The position numbers and the translations under genes were made by a program. The notes beneath the pieces were generated by a model. That model was not told the origin of the DNA. It did not search any database and was given only the letters and a program-made list of their open reading frames with translations. From a bacterium (GTDB lineage Bacteria; Patescibacteriota; Minisyncoccia; Phycocordibacterales; UBA6899): DNA of 64,000 nt. The DNA is taken from NCBI GenBank assembly GCA_043756865.1, contig JAYUQG010000024.1, forward strand, positions 91,259 to 155,258, given 5' to 3'. Below are positions 1,091 through 42,681 of this stretch, one piece after another. Every line of letters begins with the position of its first letter. Position 1 is the first letter of the stretch.

Positions 1091-1690
1091 ATGTTCACCT
1101 CTATTAAAGACACGAAGAAAGGTTTCACCCTGATTGAGCTTCTTGTGGTCATTGCGATCATCGGTATTCTCTCTTCAGTTGTGCTCGCATCGCTTTCAAC
1201 CGCGCGCCAAAAGTCACGTGACGCAAAGCGTATCTCTGACGTAGGGCAGATTCAGCTTGCGCTCGAACTCTTCTTCGACGCACAGCAGAGCTACCCACGA
1301 ACAACGCAGCTTGCAAGTACTGTAACGCAGGATGGAGGAGTGCTCGCTCTTACTGCCGCTCAATTTCTTCCTCAGACACCGGTTCCTCCAGCAGGTGGAA
1401 GTCCAAAGTATTTCTACCGCGGTCGTGTAAGCGCAGCGAATCCCCCCGGCATTGCTGATGAGTGTAATGCACTTGCAGAGACATCATGCACTTCGTACAT
1501 TGTTGCAGTCACGCTGGAGCGTGCGGACAACACCGTGCTGACAAGTGATGCCGACACTGACGCAAGTGCTTGGGTTGCCCATGCAGCTGGAGTGGTAGCA
1601 CAGTATGGTGAAGGAGGTGACATCTTTGGTGGCGCTGCAGCTTGTGGGGTCACTGGTGGTGCAGACCTTTGCTACGACATCTCACCGTAA
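1091..1690 (+). CDS. type IV (major) pilin with prepilin-type N-terminal cleavage/methylation domain
   Basis: N-terminus is MFTSIKDTKKGFTLIELLVVIAIIGILSSVVLASL (G/FTLIE class III signal). A terminator follows. Confidence 0.9.
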   Translation: MFTSIKDTKKGFTLIELLVVIAIIGILSSVVLASLSTARQKSRDAKRISDVGQIQLALELFFDAQQSYPRTTQLASTVTQDGGVLALTAAQFLPQTPVPPAGGSPKYFYRGRVSAANPPGIADECNALAETSCTSYIVAVTLERADNTVLTSDADTDASAWVAHAAGVVAQYGEGGDIFGGAAACGVTGGADLCYDISP

Positions 1691-30150: not shown

Positions 30151-32034
30151 ATGACACAAGACACCGCACTTACAATTATGAAAACCGGGGCAAATATTTT
30201 CCTCACTGGTGAGCCGGGGTCTGGAAAAACACATACCGTGAACGCATATGTGCGGTACCTGAAGGAGCATGGTATTCAACCTTCCATCACTGCGTCGACG
30301 GGGATTGCCGCAACACATGTCGGAGGTATGACGATTCACTCATGGAGCGGTATTGGGATACGTCGCGCACTCTCCGAATATGACCTTGATGCAATGGCCT
30401 CGAACGAGGGGCTGGTCCGCCGACTCGCGAAAGCCAAAGTGCTTATCATCGACGAAATCTCGATGCTTGATGGCACGGTGCTCGACATGGTCGACCAAGT
30501 CTCGCGCACGATAAGGATGAAACAAGAACCCTTTGGCGGGCTACAGGTGATTTTGGTGGGTGACTTCTTTCAGCTCCCGCCGATTGCAAAGCAAGGCGAA
30601 CGTGCGCAGTTTGCGTTTGATTCAAAGGCGTGGAAACTCGCCAATCCAATTATTTGCTATCTTTCTGAACAGCATCGCCAAGAAGACACGGCGTTTCTCT
30701 CGACCTTGGGTGCGATACGTCGCGGGGAATTGGAGGACAGTGTCTTTGAGTATATTGGTGAGCGTAACGTGGCACCGGGTGAACACCCACTCGATATTCC
30801 CCAACTGTACACACACAATATCGACGTCGACAAAAAGAACACCATAGAACTAGAAAAGCTCACCAGCGCACCTGTGGTCTTTCTGATGGAAACAAAGGGG
30901 AGTACGGGGCGGGTAGAACAGTTGGTAAAAGGATGCCTCTCGCCAGAGGAATTGGTCTTGAAGGAAGGTGCGTCTGTCATGTTTACCAAGAACAGCTTTG
31001 ATTCAGGTTATGTAAATGGCACACTCGGTACGGTCATCGGGTTTGATGCTGACAACGGATTTCCTATCGTGGAAACACGTGATGGCGATGAGATAACGGC
31101 GTTTCCGTCGGAGTGGGCAGTGGACGATAGTGGCAAGGTCCTCGCGACCATCACGCAAGTGCCACTACGACTCGCATGGGCTATCACGGTGCACAAAAGC
31201 CAAGGACTCTCGCTGGACGCGGCGGTCATGGACCTCTCACGTGCGTTTGAGTACGGTCAGGGGTATGTCGCACTCTCACGTGTTCGTGAATTCGCTGGTC
31301 TGCATATTCTTGGTATCAACCAGCGCGCGTTTGAGGTACATCCACTCGTCCTTGAACGCGATCAAGCATTCCGCGAACGCTCCGACGATGCAGAGCGTGG
31401 TTTTGAAGACATGCCACCGTCTGATCTCCTGGCACTCCACAATAATTTTATTACTGCTATGGGGGGAACGATTCATGCCGTCGCGCTTGATGAAGCGACA
31501 AAAGCCCCGAAGATTTCTACATATGAACAAACACTCGCACTGGTCGCAGACGGAAAAACTCTTGCAGAGATTATCGCACTTCGCGGGATGACCGAGGGTA
31601 CAATTGTGAAACATCTCGAAGAGCTCGCGCTTTCGGGCAATCTTCCGCCCCTCGAGATGGCACAATTCACAGGACTCGAGCAGCGTGGGCTCGACGATAT
31701 ACGGGAAGCCATCCTCGGCGTAGAAGGAGGTTACTTAAAGCCTATTTATGAAGCGCTCGATGAAGCCTATTCTTATGAAATGATTCGACTTGTGCGCTTA
31801 GCCACAGGCGCTCTGGCAAAGCGTAAAGAAGAGAGCACAGAGCAAAAAGTCGCTCGTAAAGAACCAGCCACTGCGAAGCCAGACAATCTTGGTGCCAAAT
31901 GGTCAACGGAAGAGGAGTCACGTCTGAGAGAAATGTTTCAATCGGGAATGAAGACTGCGCACATCGCCCGCGAGCTCAAGCGTCAATCGGGAGGTATCCG
32001 TGCGCGACTCAAGAAGCTCGGGTTGCTTGAATAG
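30151..32034 (+). CDS. Pif1/RecD-like SF1 DNA helicase with a C-terminal helical/HTH-like extension
   Basis: Walker A GEPGSGKTH, Walker B LIIDEISML, and motifs VGDFFQLPP and ITVHKSQGLS are present. Confidence 0.85.
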   Translation: MTQDTALTIMKTGANIFLTGEPGSGKTHTVNAYVRYLKEHGIQPSITASTGIAATHVGGMTIHSWSGIGIRRALSEYDLDAMASNEGLVRRLAKAKVLIIDEISMLDGTVLDMVDQVSRTIRMKQEPFGGLQVILVGDFFQLPPIAKQGERAQFAFDSKAWKLANPIICYLSEQHRQEDTAFLSTLGAIRRGELEDSVFEYIGERNVAPGEHPLDIPQLYTHNIDVDKKNTIELEKLTSAPVVFLMETKGSTGRVEQLVKGCLSPEELVLKEGASVMFTKNSFDSGYVNGTLGTVIGFDADNGFPIVETRDGDEITAFPSEWAVDDSGKVLATITQVPLRLAWAITVHKSQGLSLDAAVMDLSRAFEYGQGYVALSRVREFAGLHILGINQRAFEVHPLVLERDQAFRERSDDAERGFEDMPPSDLLALHNNFITAMGGTIHAVALDEATKAPKISTYEQTLALVADGKTLAEIIALRGMTEGTIVKHLEELALSGNLPPLEMAQFTGLEQRGLDDIREAILGVEGGYLKPIYEALDEAYSYEMIRLVRLATGALAKRKEESTEQKVARKEPATAKPDNLGAKWSTEEESRLREMFQSGMKTAHIARELKRQSGGIRARLKKLGLLE

Positions 32035-35888: not shown

Positions 35889-35918
35889 GCGTAGGTTAGT
35901 TGGATTGATATAACATAT

Positions 35919-35989
35919 TGCGGGTTCGTCTAATGGTAGGACGTTACCCTCTGGAGGTAAATATTGGGGTTCGAGTCCCTGACCCGCAG
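35919..35989 (+). tRNA. tRNA-Gln (CTG); CCA not encoded
   Basis: Acceptor TGCGGGT/ACCCGCA has the U1-A72 pair typical of bacterial tRNA-Gln. The anticodon loop is CTCTGGA and the T-loop is TTCGAGT. Confidence 0.85.
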
Positions 35990-36002
35990 TTACCACACAA
36001 AA

Positions 36003-36029: not shown

Positions 36030-36186
36030 GTGGTAACTCGCGGGTCAGGGACTCGAAATGCGTAAGGTGGTATACAAGACGAGCGAAGCGAGTGCTTGTC
36101 ACCGAGCCGGGGTCGAGAGCACTTTGTAGTTCGGTGGCCTTGCGCCGAAATACTTAGTGACTCGTGACCGAGTCCCTGACCCGCAG
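36030..36186 (+). repeat. copy X of a structured repeat family with 16-bp terminal inverted repeats derived from, or identical to, the tRNA-Gln 3' end
   Basis: gcgggtcagggactcg (36040-36055) is the exact reverse complement of cgagtccctgacccgc (36169-36184). An internal hairpin ttcggtg-gccttg-cgccgaa lies at 36130-36149. The unit is homologous to 11400-11519(-) and, at its ends, to 37154-37331. Confidence 0.65.
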
Positions 36187-36221: not shown

Positions 36222-36392
36222 CTATGGGTGAAAATTGTTTGTGAGGGTGATGTTTTTCTCCCCCCGCTCAATTATGCCAATATATGTGCGGTGCACCTCG
36301 GCGCGCTCTGTGAGTTTTTCTTGGGAAAGCTCGCGTTTCAAGCGTTCCTCGCGGACTCGTTTGCCGAATTTGGTTAGCAACTGTTTATTCAT
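36222..36392 (-). CDS. XRE-family helix-turn-helix transcriptional regulator (56 aa; below the ORF-track cutoff)
   Basis: My translation of the minus strand is MNKQLLTKFGKRVREERLKRELSQEKLTERAEVHRTYIGIIERGEKNITLTNNFHP. This is the classic HTH_3 pattern (LSQEKLAE...RTYI..IERGE.N.T). Confidence 0.7.
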   Translation of the reverse strand: MNKQLLTKFGKRVREERLKRELSQEKLTERAEVHRTYIGIIERGEKNITLTNNFHP

Positions 36393-36452
36393 ATCTACAT
36401 GTACAGTGTAGGAAGTTGCCTACCATGGTTCTACATACTAAAGTTAGCAAAT

Positions 36453-37043
36453 ATGGACAATAATGCGGTGATATTTATACTAGTTGTTTTTGTTGTTTTT
36501 ATTGTGATGAAGATGTTTTTTCAAAAAAAGACACACACAAACACTCATTCAAAAAGCGGACTAATCCTTTCAATCATCTCGCTTTTGTTACCATTCGCGA
36601 AGGAGTTTTTAGAAAAGAGACAGGAGGAAAAGAAGTATATTACAGAAGACGCTCGATATAGTAAAAAACAATATTTCATGACGACCGCTGAGCATCATGT
36701 TTTCGACCAGTTGTTAAAAATAGCAGGGGAGAAATATCACGTCTTTCCGCAGGTGCACTACAGTAAAATTATGTACGCCGAGGGACAGCAGAATTTCCAT
36801 AATCCGTGGTTCAACAAGATAGACCGAAAGTCCGCAGACTTTGTACTTTTTGACAAGCACGACATTTCTCCTGTTTTGGTGATTGAGCATGACGATAAGA
36901 CTCATAATCGTAAAGACCGAATTGAAAGGGACGATTTTATTGACCACACACTTGAAAAAAGTGGAATTTCAATTGTGCATGTTCGACCATTCGCGACCGA
37001 AGAGGAACTGAAGAAACTACTCCAAGTAAAAATCAGTATATAA
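36453..37043 (+). CDS. DUF2726-domain (restriction-endonuclease-like fold) protein with N-terminal TM helices
   Basis: The pattern ...FMTTAEHHVFDQLLKIAGEKYHVFPQVHYSKIM...KSADFVLFDKHDISPVLVIEHDDKTHNRKDRIERDDFI...GISIVHV matches DUF2726. ATG at 36453 is the chosen start. Confidence 0.65.
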   Translation: MDNNAVIFILVVFVVFIVMKMFFQKKTHTNTHSKSGLILSIISLLLPFAKEFLEKRQEEKKYITEDARYSKKQYFMTTAEHHVFDQLLKIAGEKYHVFPQVHYSKIMYAEGQQNFHNPWFNKIDRKSADFVLFDKHDISPVLVIEHDDKTHNRKDRIERDDFIDHTLEKSGISIVHVRPFATEEELKKLLQVKISI

Positions 37044-37153: not shown

Positions 37154-37331
37154 CAGGGACTCGAAGCCGTTCTCCCCTATTTGTGAAGGATTCTTATCCT
37201 GAGTAAATGGAAAACGGGTACTGCCCCTGTAAGGGGAGAGTCTCTGACTCGGAAGACTGAGGCGAAACACTTGGCACATAAGCACTCCTGTGCGAATATG
37301 TTTAGTAACTAATGACCAGTCCCTGACCCGC
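37154..37331 (+). repeat. copy Z of the structured repeat family (ends conserved, interior different)
   Basis: The 5' end is cagggactcgaagcc. The 3' end gtttagtaactaatgaccagtccctgacccgc compares with acttagtgactcgtgaccgagtccctgacccgc in copy X. Confidence 0.5.
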
Positions 37332-37364
37332 TACTAAATTGAGTGAGGTTCGGTTCGCGAGAGT

Positions 37365-37790
37365 ATGATTATGACGCCAGAAAATTTAATAAACATAATA
37401 AGTATCGGAGGGGCACTACTAGGTGTTGTTGTTGGAGCACTCCTTAATCACTTTCTAGAAAAAGATAGAAATAAAGACTCTTTAATCTTAAATAAGAAAA
37501 TTGATATTTACTCCTCCCTGTTAGTTAAATTAAATACAGTATTTCAAGACAGTGAGAAAAATATTCTTAATGACCCACTCTTTGAAACAACAATCAGAAC
37601 AACCCTTGCACAATCATTGTCAGAAGCTCGCCTAATAGCTGATGCAAAATTAGAACAGAAACTCAGGGACTACTATGATGAAGCAGTGCTTTTTTGGGAG
37701 AATAAAAAGTACGACAACACCATGCCTAATTTAGTTATTGAGATTGAGCAGTTGATGCGAATTGAGCTAGGAAAAGAACGTCTGCATTAA
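37365..37790 (+). CDS. hypothetical protein with one N-terminal TM helix and a helical C-terminal domain
   Basis: It is a 141 aa A+T-rich ORF. No family was recognised. Confidence 0.5.
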   Translation: MIMTPENLINIISIGGALLGVVVGALLNHFLEKDRNKDSLILNKKIDIYSSLLVKLNTVFQDSEKNILNDPLFETTIRTTLAQSLSEARLIADAKLEQKLRDYYDEAVLFWENKKYDNTMPNLVIEIEQLMRIELGKERLH

Positions 37791-37894
37791 TCATTTTGCT
37801 GAGCGCCGAAATGACTTCTTTCAAATCGCCTTATATATCATTATTGGCTTAATGGGGGAAAGTAGGACGCAGGGGGCTGCGGTAAAACCACGAA

Positions 37895-38614
37895 GTGAAA
37901 AGAAGTATCGATCCAATGAAAAACGAAAAAATTAACTCAAAAATCATCGCTCTGTGGAACAAGTATTTTCAGAATGACACTGAGGTGTACGCACCGATGT
38001 TCTACGATGACTTCAAGCGGGGCGGGTTATTGTTTGTCGGCATGAACCCGTCATTTAGCGAGCGAGGATTCAAGACGATCTTGAAAGGCACAAAGTATGA
38101 GAAGATTGACCCCACTTCGTTTTTCAGGTGGAGTAATATTTCCTCAAACCCTGATCTTATCAGCGACTGTATTGCGGTCGAGACCCATGCGTACGAGAAT
38201 TACAAACCCTTCTTTGCTCGTCCTGTTGCGATCGCAAAAGAAGTCGGGCTTGATTGGCAACACATTGATCTATTTCTTTATAAAGAAACATCGCAGGCAG
38301 ATTTCAAGAAACGCATTAAGGATGGTGACTTGCTGAATCAATTTGCACTCGAGCAAATCGCGCTCTTTGAGGAGGTGCTCCTTGCGATTGAGCCGAAGTG
38401 CATCATCGTTGCGAACGCATTCGGCTCCGAGCTTCTCCGTGAACACATCAAGAATGACCTCTTGTGGGATAAAGAGCGGGGATTTCACTGGTTCACCAAA
38501 GGAGGACGAAAGATTCCCATGCTCTTTTCCTCCATGCTTAGTGGGCAAAGAGCACTTGATCGGTGGTCGTATGAACGCTTGAAATGGCACGTTGGGCAGG
38601 CGGTAAAATCATGA
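37895..38614 (+). CDS. hypothetical protein with weak uracil-DNA-glycosylase-superfamily-like motifs
   Basis: LLFVGMNPSF resembles the GxNPG/GMNPG motif of MUG/SMUG-type enzymes. ...MLFSSMLSGQRA resembles the PSxSxxN/R-type second motif. This is motif-level only. The start is GTG 37895 or ATG 37916. Confidence 0.5.
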   Translation: MKRSIDPMKNEKINSKIIALWNKYFQNDTEVYAPMFYDDFKRGGLLFVGMNPSFSERGFKTILKGTKYEKIDPTSFFRWSNISSNPDLISDCIAVETHAYENYKPFFARPVAIAKEVGLDWQHIDLFLYKETSQADFKKRIKDGDLLNQFALEQIALFEEVLLAIEPKCIIVANAFGSELLREHIKNDLLWDKERGFHWFTKGGRKIPMLFSSMLSGQRALDRWSYERLKWHVGQAVKS

Positions 38615-39321
38615 AAATTATGACAGGAATATTTTTTTCACATCCACATACACTTTCAGATCAAGTAGGTAAAATCTTGGAAAGAGTTGGTCCTCAGAAA
38701 TTCTTTTCAAGTTCTGACAAAGAAGTGAAGAAAGCACAAGAAGGATTCGCGGCATATTTCTTCACTCTTACTTTAAAGAAATACACAGGAAGAGACTGGT
38801 GGTTAGCTCAATACGATCAAGCGGCTCGGTCTTATCCAGATTTTAATTTTATATCATTCGCCGAAAATCCTGGCGATATAAAGATGGAACCAGTAGAACT
38901 AACTGGTATTTATCCTCATTTCAAAACTTTTGATGAGGCCTTAAGAGTTGTTGAAAATAAAAAGAAGAAATATGGATCTGAGCCAGTGAATTTTAGTCTG
39001 CTGGTATTTGTTAATCACGAAAAAAGCGAAGAGTGGATTAATCTGCTAAGGGAGAAAGTGAGTAGCGAGCATCCATTCCTAAGTATTTGGACTATACACT
39101 TGAGATTCAAGAAGGGTGGAAAGGAAGTTGGTAAGTCGGTCGCCCAAAGCATACCCCCCTTGCCATGGCTGAGGATTGAAGCAGATACTGATGATTCAGA
39201 AGTGCACAAGCGCCAGCCGCTCCCATCCTATATGGAAGAGCATCATGAAGGAAGGAATACTTACGTCACATTCAAACCCGAGTTTCTTGATAAGATCAGG
39301 TCGTTGCAAAAAAGTGCCTAG
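38611..39321 (+). CDS. hypothetical protein, translationally coupled to the preceding gene
   Basis: ATG 38611 overlaps the upstream TGA (ATGA). The protein is 236 aa. No family was recognised. Confidence 0.5.
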   Translation: MKIMTGIFFSHPHTLSDQVGKILERVGPQKFFSSSDKEVKKAQEGFAAYFFTLTLKKYTGRDWWLAQYDQAARSYPDFNFISFAENPGDIKMEPVELTGIYPHFKTFDEALRVVENKKKKYGSEPVNFSLLVFVNHEKSEEWINLLREKVSSEHPFLSIWTIHLRFKKGGKEVGKSVAQSIPPLPWLRIEADTDDSEVHKRQPLPSYMEEHHEGRNTYVTFKPEFLDKIRSLQKSA

Positions 39322-39806
39322 TTTGTTGGTGCTGTAAGAATATCCCCGAATGGCTTCACTGTACGGTATTTGTTGTAAATGAGGCAGAGACAGAGACGGG
39401 TGTTTTGTGTCTTATCTGTAGCATTCACAAAATGACCCCAGTGACCGAGACGCCTAGTTACAAGAGTAGAAGGGGTGGTAAGATATCCGTATAAGGTCTT
39501 GCCCTACATGTTTGAGACCGAGATAGTCAGCTATCAACAATAGGTTCGGCTGACCGAGTGCTATCAGAACTGGAAATTTAAAGATTCACTCAATTCCATC
39601 CCGACATACCGGCTGAGTGCCGTATCTAGAAACTCAAAGTCGCTCAATGGGCGACTTTGAGTTTGAGTTGTAGAATAGGTCTGTAATCTATAGGATATAC
39701 AAATGTCAGTCAAACTCATTCTGAAGAGATAGTCCGCTTCTTGAAAACCACAGAGCCGGAAGCCATTTGTATTAGGGGTGAATAGGGTGTCAGATTTGCA
39801 ACTTTC

Positions 39807-39835
39807 GGTTCGAATCCCTGAAGCATTACCTCCAC
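39807..39835 (+). repeat. degenerate copy of the tRNA-Gln T-arm/3' flank (possible distal island boundary)
   Basis: ggttcgaatccctga matches tRNA 35968-35982 ggttcgagtccctga at 14/15. It is followed by ..ttacctccac, compared with ..ttaccacac after the tRNA. Confidence 0.4.
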
Positions 39836-39933
39836 GGAATTGCACTGTACTTTCACCTTTTTTTATATTGCCTTGCGTTTTGTGCAGATATTGATAGTTT
39901 GAGCAGTATTATTTATCAACGCACGGCTTCTTT

Positions 39934-42681
39934 ATGCGTAAACTCGTCACCGTCTTATTCCTCGCCCTCACGCTTTTAGCTATCTCTCTGCCCACTGCGT
40001 TTGCAGCCTTCCCTGTTTTTCCTCCGACACTCAATAAAAGTCCCGACGCTGGGTATGCGGATGATTCAGTGAGCAGTGGAGTGGTGCCGAACATTGGTAC
40101 AACGAGTGCTACAGTCTTCACCTTTAAGGTGCTGTATGCACAGTCACAGAATCGTGAGCCATGGGACATTAATCTTGTTGTCACTGATGGAACAACCACT
40201 GCAATTCATGCGATGAATCATGATGTGGGTGCGAATGATCCAATATTACGCGATGGGAATTATGCGAATGGGGAACAGTACATCTTCGCTGCAACGCTCA
40301 CTCCAGGCATGTGGCAATACCACTTTGAAAGCGATTTCGGCGCACAACTTCCGGGAGCGGGGGAGTGGGATTTCACAGTGAGTGTCGATACGACTCCTTC
40401 GAAGTGTGGGGTGGATTGTTACTCAAATGTGCTTTTCCTGCCTGGACTTGAGGCGAGCAGATTATTTTGGACAGATCCAAATTGCATTTTCCTCAATTGC
40501 GAAAACCAACTATGGCTTGCCAATAGTGATACAGATGCAAAACAACTCTACCTTAATTCAAACGGCACAAGCATATTGAATGACATTTATACGAGTGTTG
40601 AACGAGGTGCGATCGACGAGGCGGCGATTCCTGTGGCGGGCACAAATATATATAAAACTTTTCTCAATAGTCTCAGTGAATGGAAGAATGAAGAGCATCT
40701 TATTGCCGACTACGCAGTAGCACCGTATGACTGGAGATTGTCAGTTGATGATGTGCTCACGAAGGGAATAAAAAACGGAGACAATATTTATTATGGTGGC
40801 GCGAGCGGGACATATATTCTTGATGAACTTTTACGCATGGCGTCCACGTCGAAAACGCAAAAAGTTACAATTGTTGCGCACTCAAATGGTGGATTAGTTG
40901 CAAAACAGTTAATGCTGAAGCTCCGCGAGCTAGGCAAGGAGGACTTGATTGACAGGCTCATTCTCGTCGCTGTTCCACAGGTTGGAACACCAAAGGCAGT
41001 CGGTGGACTACTTCACGGAACAGATCTTGGTCTCCCGTTCATTCTTGATGAGGAGCACGCTCGAACTCTTGGCGAGAATATGCCGAGTGCCTATGCATTG
41101 ATGCCATCTCAGAAATATTTCGAGACCATCAATCCGAATTCAATTACAAACAAACTCATTTCATTTACCGACTCACCGCTGTATGCGCCAGAGAGATCAC
41201 AGTACGGATTTTTGGTGAGCAACATGACGGAGCTTCGGGGCTATCTACTCGGCAGTGAAGGACGAACAGAGCCTGCCGATTCTGATCTCGATTCACCAAA
41301 TGTGCTGAAGTTCGAACTTCTCGATCAAGCATCATCAACCCATGCGCTACTCGATGAATGGCAACCTGCGAGTACGACCGAAGTGGTGCAAATTGGGGGA
41401 TGGGGAGAGAAAACCATATCCGGAGTCAGCTATTACACGGAACAACAACGTGATTGTGTGACTGTGCAGGGTCAGTTTGGCGCTAGTCACCAAGAGTGCG
41501 GTCCGTATTATGAGGTGAAAAAATACAAACCCAATTTTACGACAGAGGGCGATGGTACGGTGGTTGTTCCGAGTGCGCTTTGGATAGCGACAAGCACTTC
41601 GCAGGTTGAGAGGTATTGGGTGGATTTGAAAAAATACAATGATGAGAACATCGATAAAGACCACGCGAAAATACTGGAAGTGAGCACTCTCCTCGACTTC
41701 ATTAAGACCAAACTCACTAATGTGACGTCCTCACTCCCGAACTACATAGTAAACTCCGCATCGACGCTGAGCGACGCTCCAGACATAAAGTTTGTCTATA
41801 CACTCCACTCGCCGCTTTCGCTCAATCTCTACGACACTTTAGGAAATCATACGGGAATATCTACCACAACAGGTTACGTGGAGCAAAATATCTCAGGGTC
41901 TCGCTACGGCACATTCGGCGAAGTGAAGTATATTATTGCAAATGCCGATGTCGCTCAACATCTTGCGCTTCAGGGGTATGCGACAGGAACGTTCAGTTTG
42001 GATGTTGAAAAAGTACGTGGAGATATAATTCTCGCGAGCACCACCTTTGCTTCGGTGCCCGTATCTCCAAACACCATTGCGACATTCTCGCTTCCTGCAA
42101 ATGGTGACTTCTCATCTTCGACACCATTACGGGTTGACGTTGATGGAAATGGGGCAAATGATATCGTGCTCGTACCAGAGATTGGAGCAACTGTATATCC
42201 AGACTTCACTCCACCCGAAGCGATATTCTCATTTAATGCAATTACTAAAGATGTTGTGATTTTGGGGGAAGATAACGTTGGGACAACCTCAACACTAATC
42301 ACACCAACGTCGACCACCATCACTGACCAGTCGGGAAATACACTCAGCATCCCATTCATCAAGTTCAAAGAGAAGCCAACTAAATTAAAAATTGCATTCG
42401 ATACGTTAATTTATAACGGAGTAGCGACCGCAACACCATGGGTGACTATTGAGTATGAATGGGTGATTAAGAATAACGGCATGCTCCAGTCACTTTCACA
42501 GGATATTCGCATCAAGGGTGCGCGCCGTGTGACTGCAGACTATTCTTTGAGCAAGGGTGAAACCAAGATTATGGACAGAATCAGGGAGGATGGGGAAAAG
42601 AGTGTCACAAAAACTGTAAAAACGGGTGTAACCGTGCTTCCGCTGTCGACAAAAGCAGGAGCACTCGACGTGACGTATTGA
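39934..42681 (+). CDS. large secreted alpha/beta-hydrolase, LCAT-like (lecithin:cholesterol acyltransferase / phospholipase family)
   Basis: It has the signal peptide MRKLVTVLFLALTLLAISLPTAFA. LCAT-type motifs are FLPGLEASRLF and APYDWRLS, and the nucleophile elbow is VAHSNGG. The long C-terminal half is beta-rich and 915 aa in total. Confidence 0.7.
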   Translation: MRKLVTVLFLALTLLAISLPTAFAAFPVFPPTLNKSPDAGYADDSVSSGVVPNIGTTSATVFTFKVLYAQSQNREPWDINLVVTDGTTTAIHAMNHDVGANDPILRDGNYANGEQYIFAATLTPGMWQYHFESDFGAQLPGAGEWDFTVSVDTTPSKCGVDCYSNVLFLPGLEASRLFWTDPNCIFLNCENQLWLANSDTDAKQLYLNSNGTSILNDIYTSVERGAIDEAAIPVAGTNIYKTFLNSLSEWKNEEHLIADYAVAPYDWRLSVDDVLTKGIKNGDNIYYGGASGTYILDELLRMASTSKTQKVTIVAHSNGGLVAKQLMLKLRELGKEDLIDRLILVAVPQVGTPKAVGGLLHGTDLGLPFILDEEHARTLGENMPSAYALMPSQKYFETINPNSITNKLISFTDSPLYAPERSQYGFLVSNMTELRGYLLGSEGRTEPADSDLDSPNVLKFELLDQASSTHALLDEWQPASTTEVVQIGGWGEKTISGVSYYTEQQRDCVTVQGQFGASHQECGPYYEVKKYKPNFTTEGDGTVVVPSALWIATSTSQVERYWVDLKKYNDENIDKDHAKILEVSTLLDFIKTKLTNVTSSLPNYIVNSASTLSDAPDIKFVYTLHSPLSLNLYDTLGNHTGISTTTGYVEQNISGSRYGTFGEVKYIIANADVAQHLALQGYATGTFSLDVEKVRGDIILASTTFASVPVSPNTIATFSLPANGDFSSSTPLRVDVDGNGANDIVLVPEIGATVYPDFTPPEAIFSFNAITKDVVILGEDNVGTTSTLITPTSTTITDQSGNTLSIPFIKFKEKPTKLKIAFDTLIYNGVATATPWVTIEYEWVIKNNGMLQSLSQDIRIKGARRVTADYSLSKGETKIMDRIREDGEKSVTKTVKTGVTVLPLSTKAGALDVTY

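Follow-up and report, generated by a model that had tools for sequence, protein, structure and literature searches.

Brig1 is an antiviral DNA glycosylase with the fold of the uracil-DNA glycosylases (UDGs) (PMC11078745), and other antiviral glycosylases of this fold have been described, namely Brig2 (bioRxiv 10.1101/2025.10.29.685425) and Brig3, which has an overlapping helper gene, bapA (10.64898/2026.02.25.707755). Here we analyze three neighboring genes in a 64,000-nucleotide stretch of contig JAYUQG010000024.1 (hereafter the window), which derives from a Paceibacterota/Parcubacteria genome of the candidate phyla radiation (CPR). We refer to them, in order, as TM141 (141 amino acids [aa]), gene A, and gene B. 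To our knowledge, defense by DNA glycosylases was recognized only in 2024-2026 and a handful of families are known; CPR bacteria, which have tiny genomes, have poorly known phage-defense repertoires. The explanation that we favor, and to which we give an even chance, is that gene A and gene B are co-expressed yet separable cargo directed against foreign DNA, located at the att-proximal end of a decayed element that had integrated at a tRNA-Gln gene.

Three genes that do not form a conserved system

The three open reading frames (ORFs) all lie on the + strand, at 37365-37790 (141 aa), 37895-38614 (239 aa when read from a GTG), and 38584/38611-39321 (245/236 aa). An earlier note, made from the sequence of the window, had called attention to an ATGA at 38611-38614, in which the stop codon of gene A overlaps a start codon of gene B, and this overlap is indeed present. 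Homologs of gene A all start with M-[KR]-N, and when genes were called independently on a contig identical to the window the protein was 232 aa long; the likely start of gene A is therefore the ATG at 37916 (37916-38614, + strand), with the GTG at 37895 as an alternative. Homologs of gene B (38611-39321, + strand) mostly begin at the residue encoded at 38620, which is 5 nt past the gene A stop, and in a second contig (DALYED010000007, fetched as L001 and L007) the ATG homologous to the 38620 start overlaps the gene A stop. Thus, the two genes are tightly coupled whichever start of gene B is considered.

Database proteins matching at E<=1e-3 numbered 240 for gene A, 144 for gene B, and 13 for TM141, and the named source organisms of these homologs were Parcubacteria/Paceibacterota metagenome-assembled genomes. 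In comparison with the 83%-identical copy in L001, the ratio of nonsynonymous to synonymous substitution (dN/dS) was 0.047 for gene A and 0.136 for gene B. We take all three ORFs to be genuine genes, with gene A and gene B under purifying selection as judged by dN/dS. That none of the three has a recognizable family, as the earlier note had it, was borne out by searches of Pfam, NCBIfam, PADLOC, and PHROGs, all of which came back empty (for NCBIfam, PHROGs, and Pfam, no match at E<=0.1). The block is also A+T-rich, as described: its G+C content (37365-39321) is 0.411 as compared to 0.484 for the whole window. The individual values (0.34 for TM141, 0.46 for gene A, and 0.40 for gene B) differ from one another and thus indicate a mosaic origin.

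Do the three genes constitute a system? We surveyed 80 gene A loci from species-representative genomes and 53 gene B loci from metagenomes, or about 130 loci in total. Apart from the window, which was itself recovered as the identical contig L141, gene A and gene B were adjacent in one other contig only, DALYED010000007, and homologs of TM141 were never adjacent to homologs of either gene on the four contigs on which they were found. TM141, gene A, and gene B are not a conserved three-gene system, and the suggestion that the set functions as one did not hold up: homologs of TM141 are never found beside the other two, gene A and gene B are rarely together, and the gene that follows gene A is freely exchanged. 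Gene A and gene B would instead be separable modules rather than obligate partners. The earlier note had held that its proposal would fail if homologs were co-localized neither with each other nor with defense islands; they are not co-localized with each other, but in CPR genomes they are co-localized with defense genes, the neighbors in related loci matching the PADLOC models REase_II, MTase_II, and PDC-S53.

TM141 (37365-37790, + strand) encodes a small protein whose N terminus holds a membrane anchor and belongs to a CPR family of 13 members that is unlinked to gene A and gene B. Its description as a single-transmembrane protein proved accurate, in that a single hydrophobic segment is found, near the N terminus; of the 19-residue Kyte-Doolittle windows, the best starts at residue 8 and has a mean of 2.29. 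On the four contigs its homolog (P0245) adjoins tRNA-Gln or a remnant of a tRNA end, and the cargo upstream varies from contig to contig, being either a reverse transcriptase with ResIII or a GIY-YIG protein. On the 3' side of TM141, similarity between the window and contigs L142-L145 is confined to the gene itself. TM141 is independent of gene A and gene B and simply neighbors tRNA-Gln in its relatives. In L143 (133-402) and L144 (1-450) tRNA-Gln(UUG) is separated from the TM141 homolog by a small GIY-YIG ORF; flanked by tRNA-end-like sequence, this ORF is another occupant of the same hotspot.

A predicted glycosylase and a probable nuclease

Gene A is predicted with confidence, from its structural model, to have the fold of the UDG superfamily. 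The model is alpha/beta, is built around a parallel beta-sheet, and can be superposed on solved UDGs, with scores of 10.4 for the T. maritima family 4 UDG, 10.0 for UdgX, 9.9 for the T. thermophilus UDG, 9.5 for TDG, 8.8 for SMUG1, and 8.0 for MUG. Thus, what had been a guess from the motif-level resemblance of the 239-aa protein is correct at the level of fold. The motifs are also placed as in UDGs: motif 1 (G42-M-N44-P45-S46) directly follows strand 38-42 (beta-1), and S206-M-L-S-G210-Q-R of motif 2 (F-S-S-M-L-S-G-Q-R) comes after strand 200-205, the last core strand. In an alignment that reaches 24-41% identity and spans Chloroflexi, Acidobacteriota, archaea, Bacteroidota, and Proteobacteria, the residues F40, G42, N44, P45, S46, and D118 are invariant, and the residues of motif 1 and motif 2 would be expected to have a catalytic role. 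We take the G-x-N-P-S sequence to occupy the position of the water-activating loop and to be closest to GINPG (MUG/TDG) and GMNPG (SMUG1), and D118 presumably sits at the end of strand beta-2, where uracil-specific enzymes have a base-reading Asn. The presence of Asp instead of Asn would argue that the substrate of gene A is something other than uracil.

Gene A is an undescribed family inside the known UDG superfamily. Scores against the Pfam families UDG (PF03167) and DUF1643 fell below the gathering threshold, the window protein having no match at E<=1 and just one of 45 relatives being marginal for UDG (E 0.009) and one of 45 for DUF1643 (E 0.001). A profile of the family retrieved nothing relevant among the sequences of solved structures (PDB). 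The family comprises 240 protein clusters at 90% identity, with relatives in archaea, Bacteroidota, and Proteobacteria. Its distribution is patchy and it is horizontally transferred; in CPR bacteria it rides islands rich in restriction-modification (R-M) genes, and in L147 a gene A homolog shares its island with a C5-methyltransferase.

The family of gene B, by contrast in size, is tiny: a set of 1.84 billion proteins contains 64 representatives of it at 50% identity, and none of its members, the most distant included, has a Pfam domain. An attempt to annotate gene B transitively failed: distant homologs had no informative Pfam domain, apart from one fusion to a SEC-C motif, and matches to MFS and kinase-LRR proteins look like gene-call artifacts or chance. 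The structural model (mean predicted local distance difference test [pLDDT] score 80.8) has a helix at 37-59, strands at 64-67, 78-82, and 91-101, a helix at 107-121, and a strand at 128-134, followed by a beta-rich C-terminal part, and these predicted elements were counted as those of the PD-(D/E)xK superfamily. Among 45 members with identities as low as 15%, no variation is seen at D77, K117, and L130 and almost none at P76, E96, and N135; the candidate catalytic residues are E44, P76-D77, E96, and K117. There is no lysine two residues past E96, and the invariant K117 sits on the next helix. The best structural matches were PD-(D/E)xK nucleases of the CdiA-CT(Bp1026b/E479) and MspJI-nuclease types. 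CdiA-CT 1026b uses E187/D214/D223/K242 (PMC9086364), and K117 could by analogy stand in for the catalytic lysine, in the manner of K242. A Foldseek search of gene B against the PDB returned nothing significant, and a profile of the family gave nothing relevant among the sequences of solved structures. As judged by fold and motifs, gene B is probably a nuclease of the PD-(D/E)xK type.

What does gene B keep company with? It nearly always follows a partner on the same strand at a distance of 0-35 nt, but what this partner is varies. We tallied the gene immediately upstream in 48 loci (the counts are of loci, some of which are near-duplicates). The partner was a DUF262+HNH protein (PADLOC REase_II, E 2e-86) in 22 loci, in most cases with an EcoRI-like MTase_II (E 1e-103) ahead of it, and a methyltransferase (MTase_II) directly in four. 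Proteins of about 820 aa with an NPPY motif accounted for six loci and TaqI_C fragments for two, and single loci had a PDC-S53 helicase, a Hypoth_Ymh gene (itself located after an Eco57I-like enzyme), a histidine phosphatase, and gene A (contig L001); in about 10 loci the partner was of no known identity. The methyltransferases beside gene B are chiefly of the EcoRI-like or N6/N4 types and not C5. Like the family of gene A, that of gene B is patchy in distribution and horizontally transferred. DNA similarity between loci begins and ends at the boundaries of the ORF, with 60-80% identity across very different contexts, and this inter-locus comparison revealed neither a target-site nor a flanking-repeat signature around gene B.

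Two kinds of partner merit description in their own right. The ~820-aa proteins that lie directly 5' of gene B (L096 5540-7993 and its relatives in L094, L109, and L119) have no Pfam or PADLOC match; they have an N-terminal D...EFK motif in addition to the NPPY motif, a sequence organization that suggests an undescribed fused nuclease-methyltransferase (type IIG-like) enzyme. A superfamily 1 (SF1) helicase of about 910 aa (L001 512-3256; L088 1503-4217) is matched along its whole length by the PADLOC candidate PDC-S53 (about 1350 bits), and is located directly 5' of gene A-gene B in L001 and directly 5' of gene B alone in L088.

The exchangeable slot and the tRNA-Gln island

In eight CPR loci, gene A is followed by one or two unrelated genes and then by a conserved non-coding element of about 160 nt, which in the window lies at 39371-39536 (+ strand), where it closes the variable slot after gene A. 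DNA similarity between the window and L001 extends beyond gene B, to 39531, and copies of the element that are 80-86% identical are present in nine other loci, in the ninth of which, the IMG/VR contig L146, it occurs without gene A. Copies are located at 4707-4866 in L001, 10267-10429 in L008, 10263-10425 in L012, 10071-10232 in L013/L014, 9068-9228 in L015, 745-907 in L031, and 1430-1597 (- strand) in L146. The genes 5' of gene A and those 3' of the element show no conservation among the element-bearing loci. L013 and L015 are 90% identical through an Mrr gene and gene A, diverge 16 nt before the gene A stop, and match again at the element, a clean cassette exchange after gene A. In the window the slot between gene A and the element is filled by gene B. 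We also asked whether gene B is related to the other slot genes, and hhalign probabilities of less than 1% revealed no relationship.

The element contains three GACCGAGAC-type motifs, at 39389, 39443, and 39516. Over the last ~30 nt (39507-39536) it is a degenerate copy of the tRNA-Gln 3' end, with tRNA-flank-like sequence continuing to about 39558, and the 3' end of the element and the ~20 nt that follow can be aligned, without a shift in register, to the 3' end of a genuine tRNA-Gln and the sequence downstream of it; the string CAGCCAGTTTGAG-TAGGTTCG is common to the end of the element in L012 and the tRNA flank in L031. As judged from these sequence features, the element is probably an attR-type island end. 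As a structured RNA it was rejected, having no Rfam match and, with RNAalifold on both strands, weak energies and essentially no covariation, and a short ORF from an ATG in the element is not conserved, the ATG being absent in L001 and L012.

At the other end of the island is tRNA-Gln(CUG), at 35918-35990 on the + strand (ARAGORN; Rfam tRNA, 56.6 bits), which would be the integration target and the left boundary of the insertion. An 18-nt exact direct repeat of the tRNA-Gln 3' end was found by repeat search at 36169-36186 (+ strand), an exact inverted copy at 36040-36057 forms a long hairpin with the tRNA end, and a third, degenerate copy (83%) lies at 37316-37333 (+ strand), 31 nt upstream of TM141. 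In all, the repeat had four matches in the window, as compared to 0.03 expected. Bracketed by the direct repeats at 36169 and 37316, as in a 1.15-kb mini-island without an integrase, are the two neighbors to which the earlier note had correctly assigned families: an XRE/C-protein-like regulator (36222-36392, - strand; Pfam XRE/HTH_3; PADLOC Control_protein, E 3e-14) and a membrane-anchored DUF2726 nuclease-fold protein (36399-37043, + strand; Pfam E 9e-24). The XRE gene and the divergently adjacent DUF2726 gene may be a nuclease module controlled by a C protein. We infer that the interval from tRNA-Gln to 39536 consists of stacked insertions, and with the tRNA gene, its repeats, and the island end in place, the assignment of these genes as island cargo at a tRNA stands.

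From what kind of element might the island have come? In L146 the ~160-nt element is about 10 kb from genes for a large serine recombinase, the small and large terminase subunits, and two N6/N4 methyltransferases, and homologs of these recombinase, terminase, and methyltransferase genes are found within 8 kb of gene A in L012, L019, L020, L023, L040, and L049 and within 8 kb of gene B in L121. Scans of viral contigs yielded one distant relative of gene A, no gene B, and one copy of the ~160-nt element. The recombinase, terminase, and N6/N4 methyltransferase genes are a recurrent CPR gene set (L146 7750-13030; L012 3-3327; L019 8783-11866; L020 5804-10617; L121 2-352 and 15181-16430), in which cargo of the gene A and gene B families is located at differing places.

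Finally, we note several features of the surroundings. A near-perfect 17-nt inverted repeat (39630-39664, no strand assigned), which forms a hairpin and is a possible terminator, lies in the 612-nt spacer before the next gene. The spacer is unusually long and, within 39535-39933, also has a T-arm-like GGTTCGAATCC string at 39807-39817; no convincing RNA gene was found there. An intron-containing tRNA or a group I intron in 39535-39850 was not accepted: the Rfam Intron_gpI match (39598-39753) scored 17 bits against a gathering threshold of 50, and a tRNA was obtained with relaxed ARAGORN settings only and needed a 423-nt intron (folding z-score -2.2). The gene directly downstream of the island (39934-42681) codes for a secreted protein of 915 aa that has an alpha/beta-hydrolase domain of the LCAT/PGAP1-like kind (Pfam LCAT, E 4e-16). 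Also near the tRNA-Gln island of the window is the gene for a PIF1/AAA_30 helicase (30151-32034) that has a helix-turn-helix (HTH) at its C terminus; a helicase ~52% identical to it lies near the island in L009/L147 (L147 12313-14070), and this gene may be a conserved chromosomal landmark of the hotspot.

Competing explanations and known systems

In the explanation that we favor, gene A would be a monofunctional DNA glycosylase acting on incoming DNA, from which it would excise a flipped-out base that is non-canonical or modified (a base other than uracil, possibly a modified one), leaving abasic sites as Brig1-3 do; gene B would be a Mg2+-dependent PD-(D/E)xK nuclease. Co-transcribed and translationally coupled here, both would attack foreign DNA, with gene B being elsewhere a tail gene of R-M operons and here the occupant of a cassette slot. 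Several observations weigh against this explanation. None of the three genes matched a PADLOC-DB v2 model at E<=1, so that the PADLOC check proposed in the earlier note produced no model for gene A or gene B. Comparison with Brig1 (the sequence in the supplement of the Brig1 paper) gave an hhalign probability of 0.9% for the family alignment of gene A (A6), in a match limited to the motif-1 stretch, and a BLASTP E of 0.38; gene A has no detectable similarity to Brig1 and by sequence is not a member of the Brig1 family. Outside the CPR, the immediate neighbors of gene A homologs are heterogeneous and often housekeeping genes (EF-G and RecX, for example), with 100 Pfam families among 118 neighbors; defense may therefore be a lineage-specific use of gene A, or gene A may be a repair enzyme. 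About one-fourth of the gene B loci have partners of no known identity, two of them in housekeeping surroundings. In L001 and the window the gene A-gene B junction and the ~160-nt element are kept together, which is compatible with a functional pair. Lastly, tblastn revealed no recombinase, terminase, or phage gene in the window; the local copy is therefore a remnant, and its presumed origin from a mobile element is judged from its relatives.

Might the two genes nonetheless be a true two-gene defense system, in which gene A creates abasic sites in modified phage DNA and the coupled gene B cleaves at or near them? The stop of gene A and the start of gene B overlap or are 5 nt apart, the block of gene A, gene B, and the element recurs with 83% nucleotide identity in another genome, where what lies upstream is different (the PDC-S53 helicase), and Brig3-BapA provides the precedent of an overlapping operon that pairs a glycosylase of the UDG fold with a helper of unknown fold. 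However, the pair is retained in just one other contig among the ~130 loci, unrelated genes occupy the slot after gene A at other loci, gene B is mostly found behind R-M genes with gene A absent, and gene B is unlike the double beta-barrel/ASCH fold of BapA; we consider such a system unlikely. Another reading would make gene A, an exchangeable slot gene, and the att-like element a modular, glycosylase-centered immunity locus of CPR mobile elements, in which helpers or effectors (gene B and proteins of 148 aa, 366-443 aa, and ~390 aa) interchange and would widen or complete the action of gene A on differently modified phage DNA. If true, this would generalize the Brig3-BapA principle to a cassette system, but we regard it as quite improbable.

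Alternatively, the two genes could serve genome maintenance, with gene A being a repair glycosylase (acting, for instance, on products of deamination or on mismatches) akin to MUG/TDG or the R-M-linked Mig and gene B a repair endonuclease or one of the very-short-patch type, like Vsr, both of which would travel with methyltransferases and limit the mutations that methylation induces. The MUG/TDG/SMUG-like Asn motif of gene A, the RecX, EF-G, and metabolic genes that adjoin its distant homologs, the C5-methyltransferase in its island in L147, the position of gene B directly 3' of methyltransferase-containing R-M operons, and strong purifying selection are all in keeping with such a role. Yet both families are patchy, horizontally transferred, and found in variable tRNA-adjacent islands and mobile elements, the methyltransferases beside gene B are mainly of types other than C5, and the alignment suggests that an invariant Asp replaces the uracil/thymine-reading Asn in gene A; maintenance is in our judgment decidedly unlikely. 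The least likely of the explanations that we considered is that the genes serve the element itself, gene A as a backbone function of a CPR prophage-like element (acting, for example, on modified or uracil-containing DNA of that element or in superinfection exclusion) and gene B as a selfish, free-standing nuclease cassette that spreads by insertion behind other genes. Gene A is the conserved last gene ahead of the variable slot and the att-like element, its homologs lie between serine recombinase and terminase/methyltransferase genes in L019, L020, L023, and L049, and the similarity of gene B is bounded by the ends of its ORF in very different contexts. Nevertheless, one distant gene A relative excepted, no homolog of either gene was found on a confidently viral contig, most loci of both genes have no phage genes within +-8 kb, and gene B lacks a target-site or flanking-repeat signature.

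On balance, we return to separable anti-foreign-DNA cargo as the explanation that we favor. UDG-fold and nuclease genes are both of a kind that defense islands commonly carry. The value of the locus lies in new families and a testable architecture; it presents no new principle and nothing surprising in kind. Gene A is a large unannotated UDG-fold family carried in R-M-rich islands of CPR bacteria, gene B could be an unrecognized accessory of restriction, and the slot with its att-like element is a handle for finding more cargo genes and for defining a family of CPR mobile elements that target tRNA-Gln.

How, then, does the locus compare with what is known? As in defense hotspots near the att ends of prophages and satellites (those of the P2/P4 type, for example), conserved flanks (gene A and the att-like element) bracket a slot in which unrelated small genes are swapped while the backgrounds are nearly identical, and next to which R-M and type IV restriction genes build up. 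It differs in that the host is a CPR bacterium, the integrase of intact relatives is a large serine recombinase, and the putatively mobile element of the window is in decay, recombinase and terminase genes being absent from the window. The candidate residues E44/D77/E96/K117 of gene B have the order and a spacing similar to that of E187/D214/D223/K242 in CdiA-CT 1026b: helix 1 and strand 3 each carry an acidic residue, PD opens strand 2, and the lysine comes some 20 residues after the acidic residue of strand 3, on the next helix. Relative to nucleases of the CdiA-CT/MspJI type, gene B has additional parts, namely a conserved HPHTL segment at the N terminus and a C-terminal domain rich in beta structure, and, unlike CdiA-CT, it is not part of a secreted toxin and has no evident immunity gene. 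Gene A has in common with UDG families 2/3 (MUG/TDG and SMUG1), Pfam UDG, and DUF1643 its fold, an Asn-containing motif-1 loop (GINPG/GMNPG-like) right after beta-1, and, past the last core strand, a motif-2 loop rich in Ser and Gly. In contrast to these families, it has Asp in place of the base-reading Asn and an extra helical insert between beta-1 and beta-2, and in CPR genomes it is borne on islands rather than being a core gene.

The closest comparison is with the Brig enzymes, which gene A would at most resemble in its action, by analogy. Its motifs (G-x-N-P-S, the invariant D118, and FSSML(S/T)GQR) differ from those of Brig1-3. Moreover, BapA is an ASCH-like, double beta-barrel DNA glucosyl hydrolase, whereas gene B is nuclease-like, bears no resemblance to that fold, and is not a fixed partner. 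Still, gene A, like Brig1-3, is a single small enzyme in an A+T-rich, horizontally moving defense or integron context, and just as brig3 overlaps its downstream helper gene, so gene A overlaps gene B.

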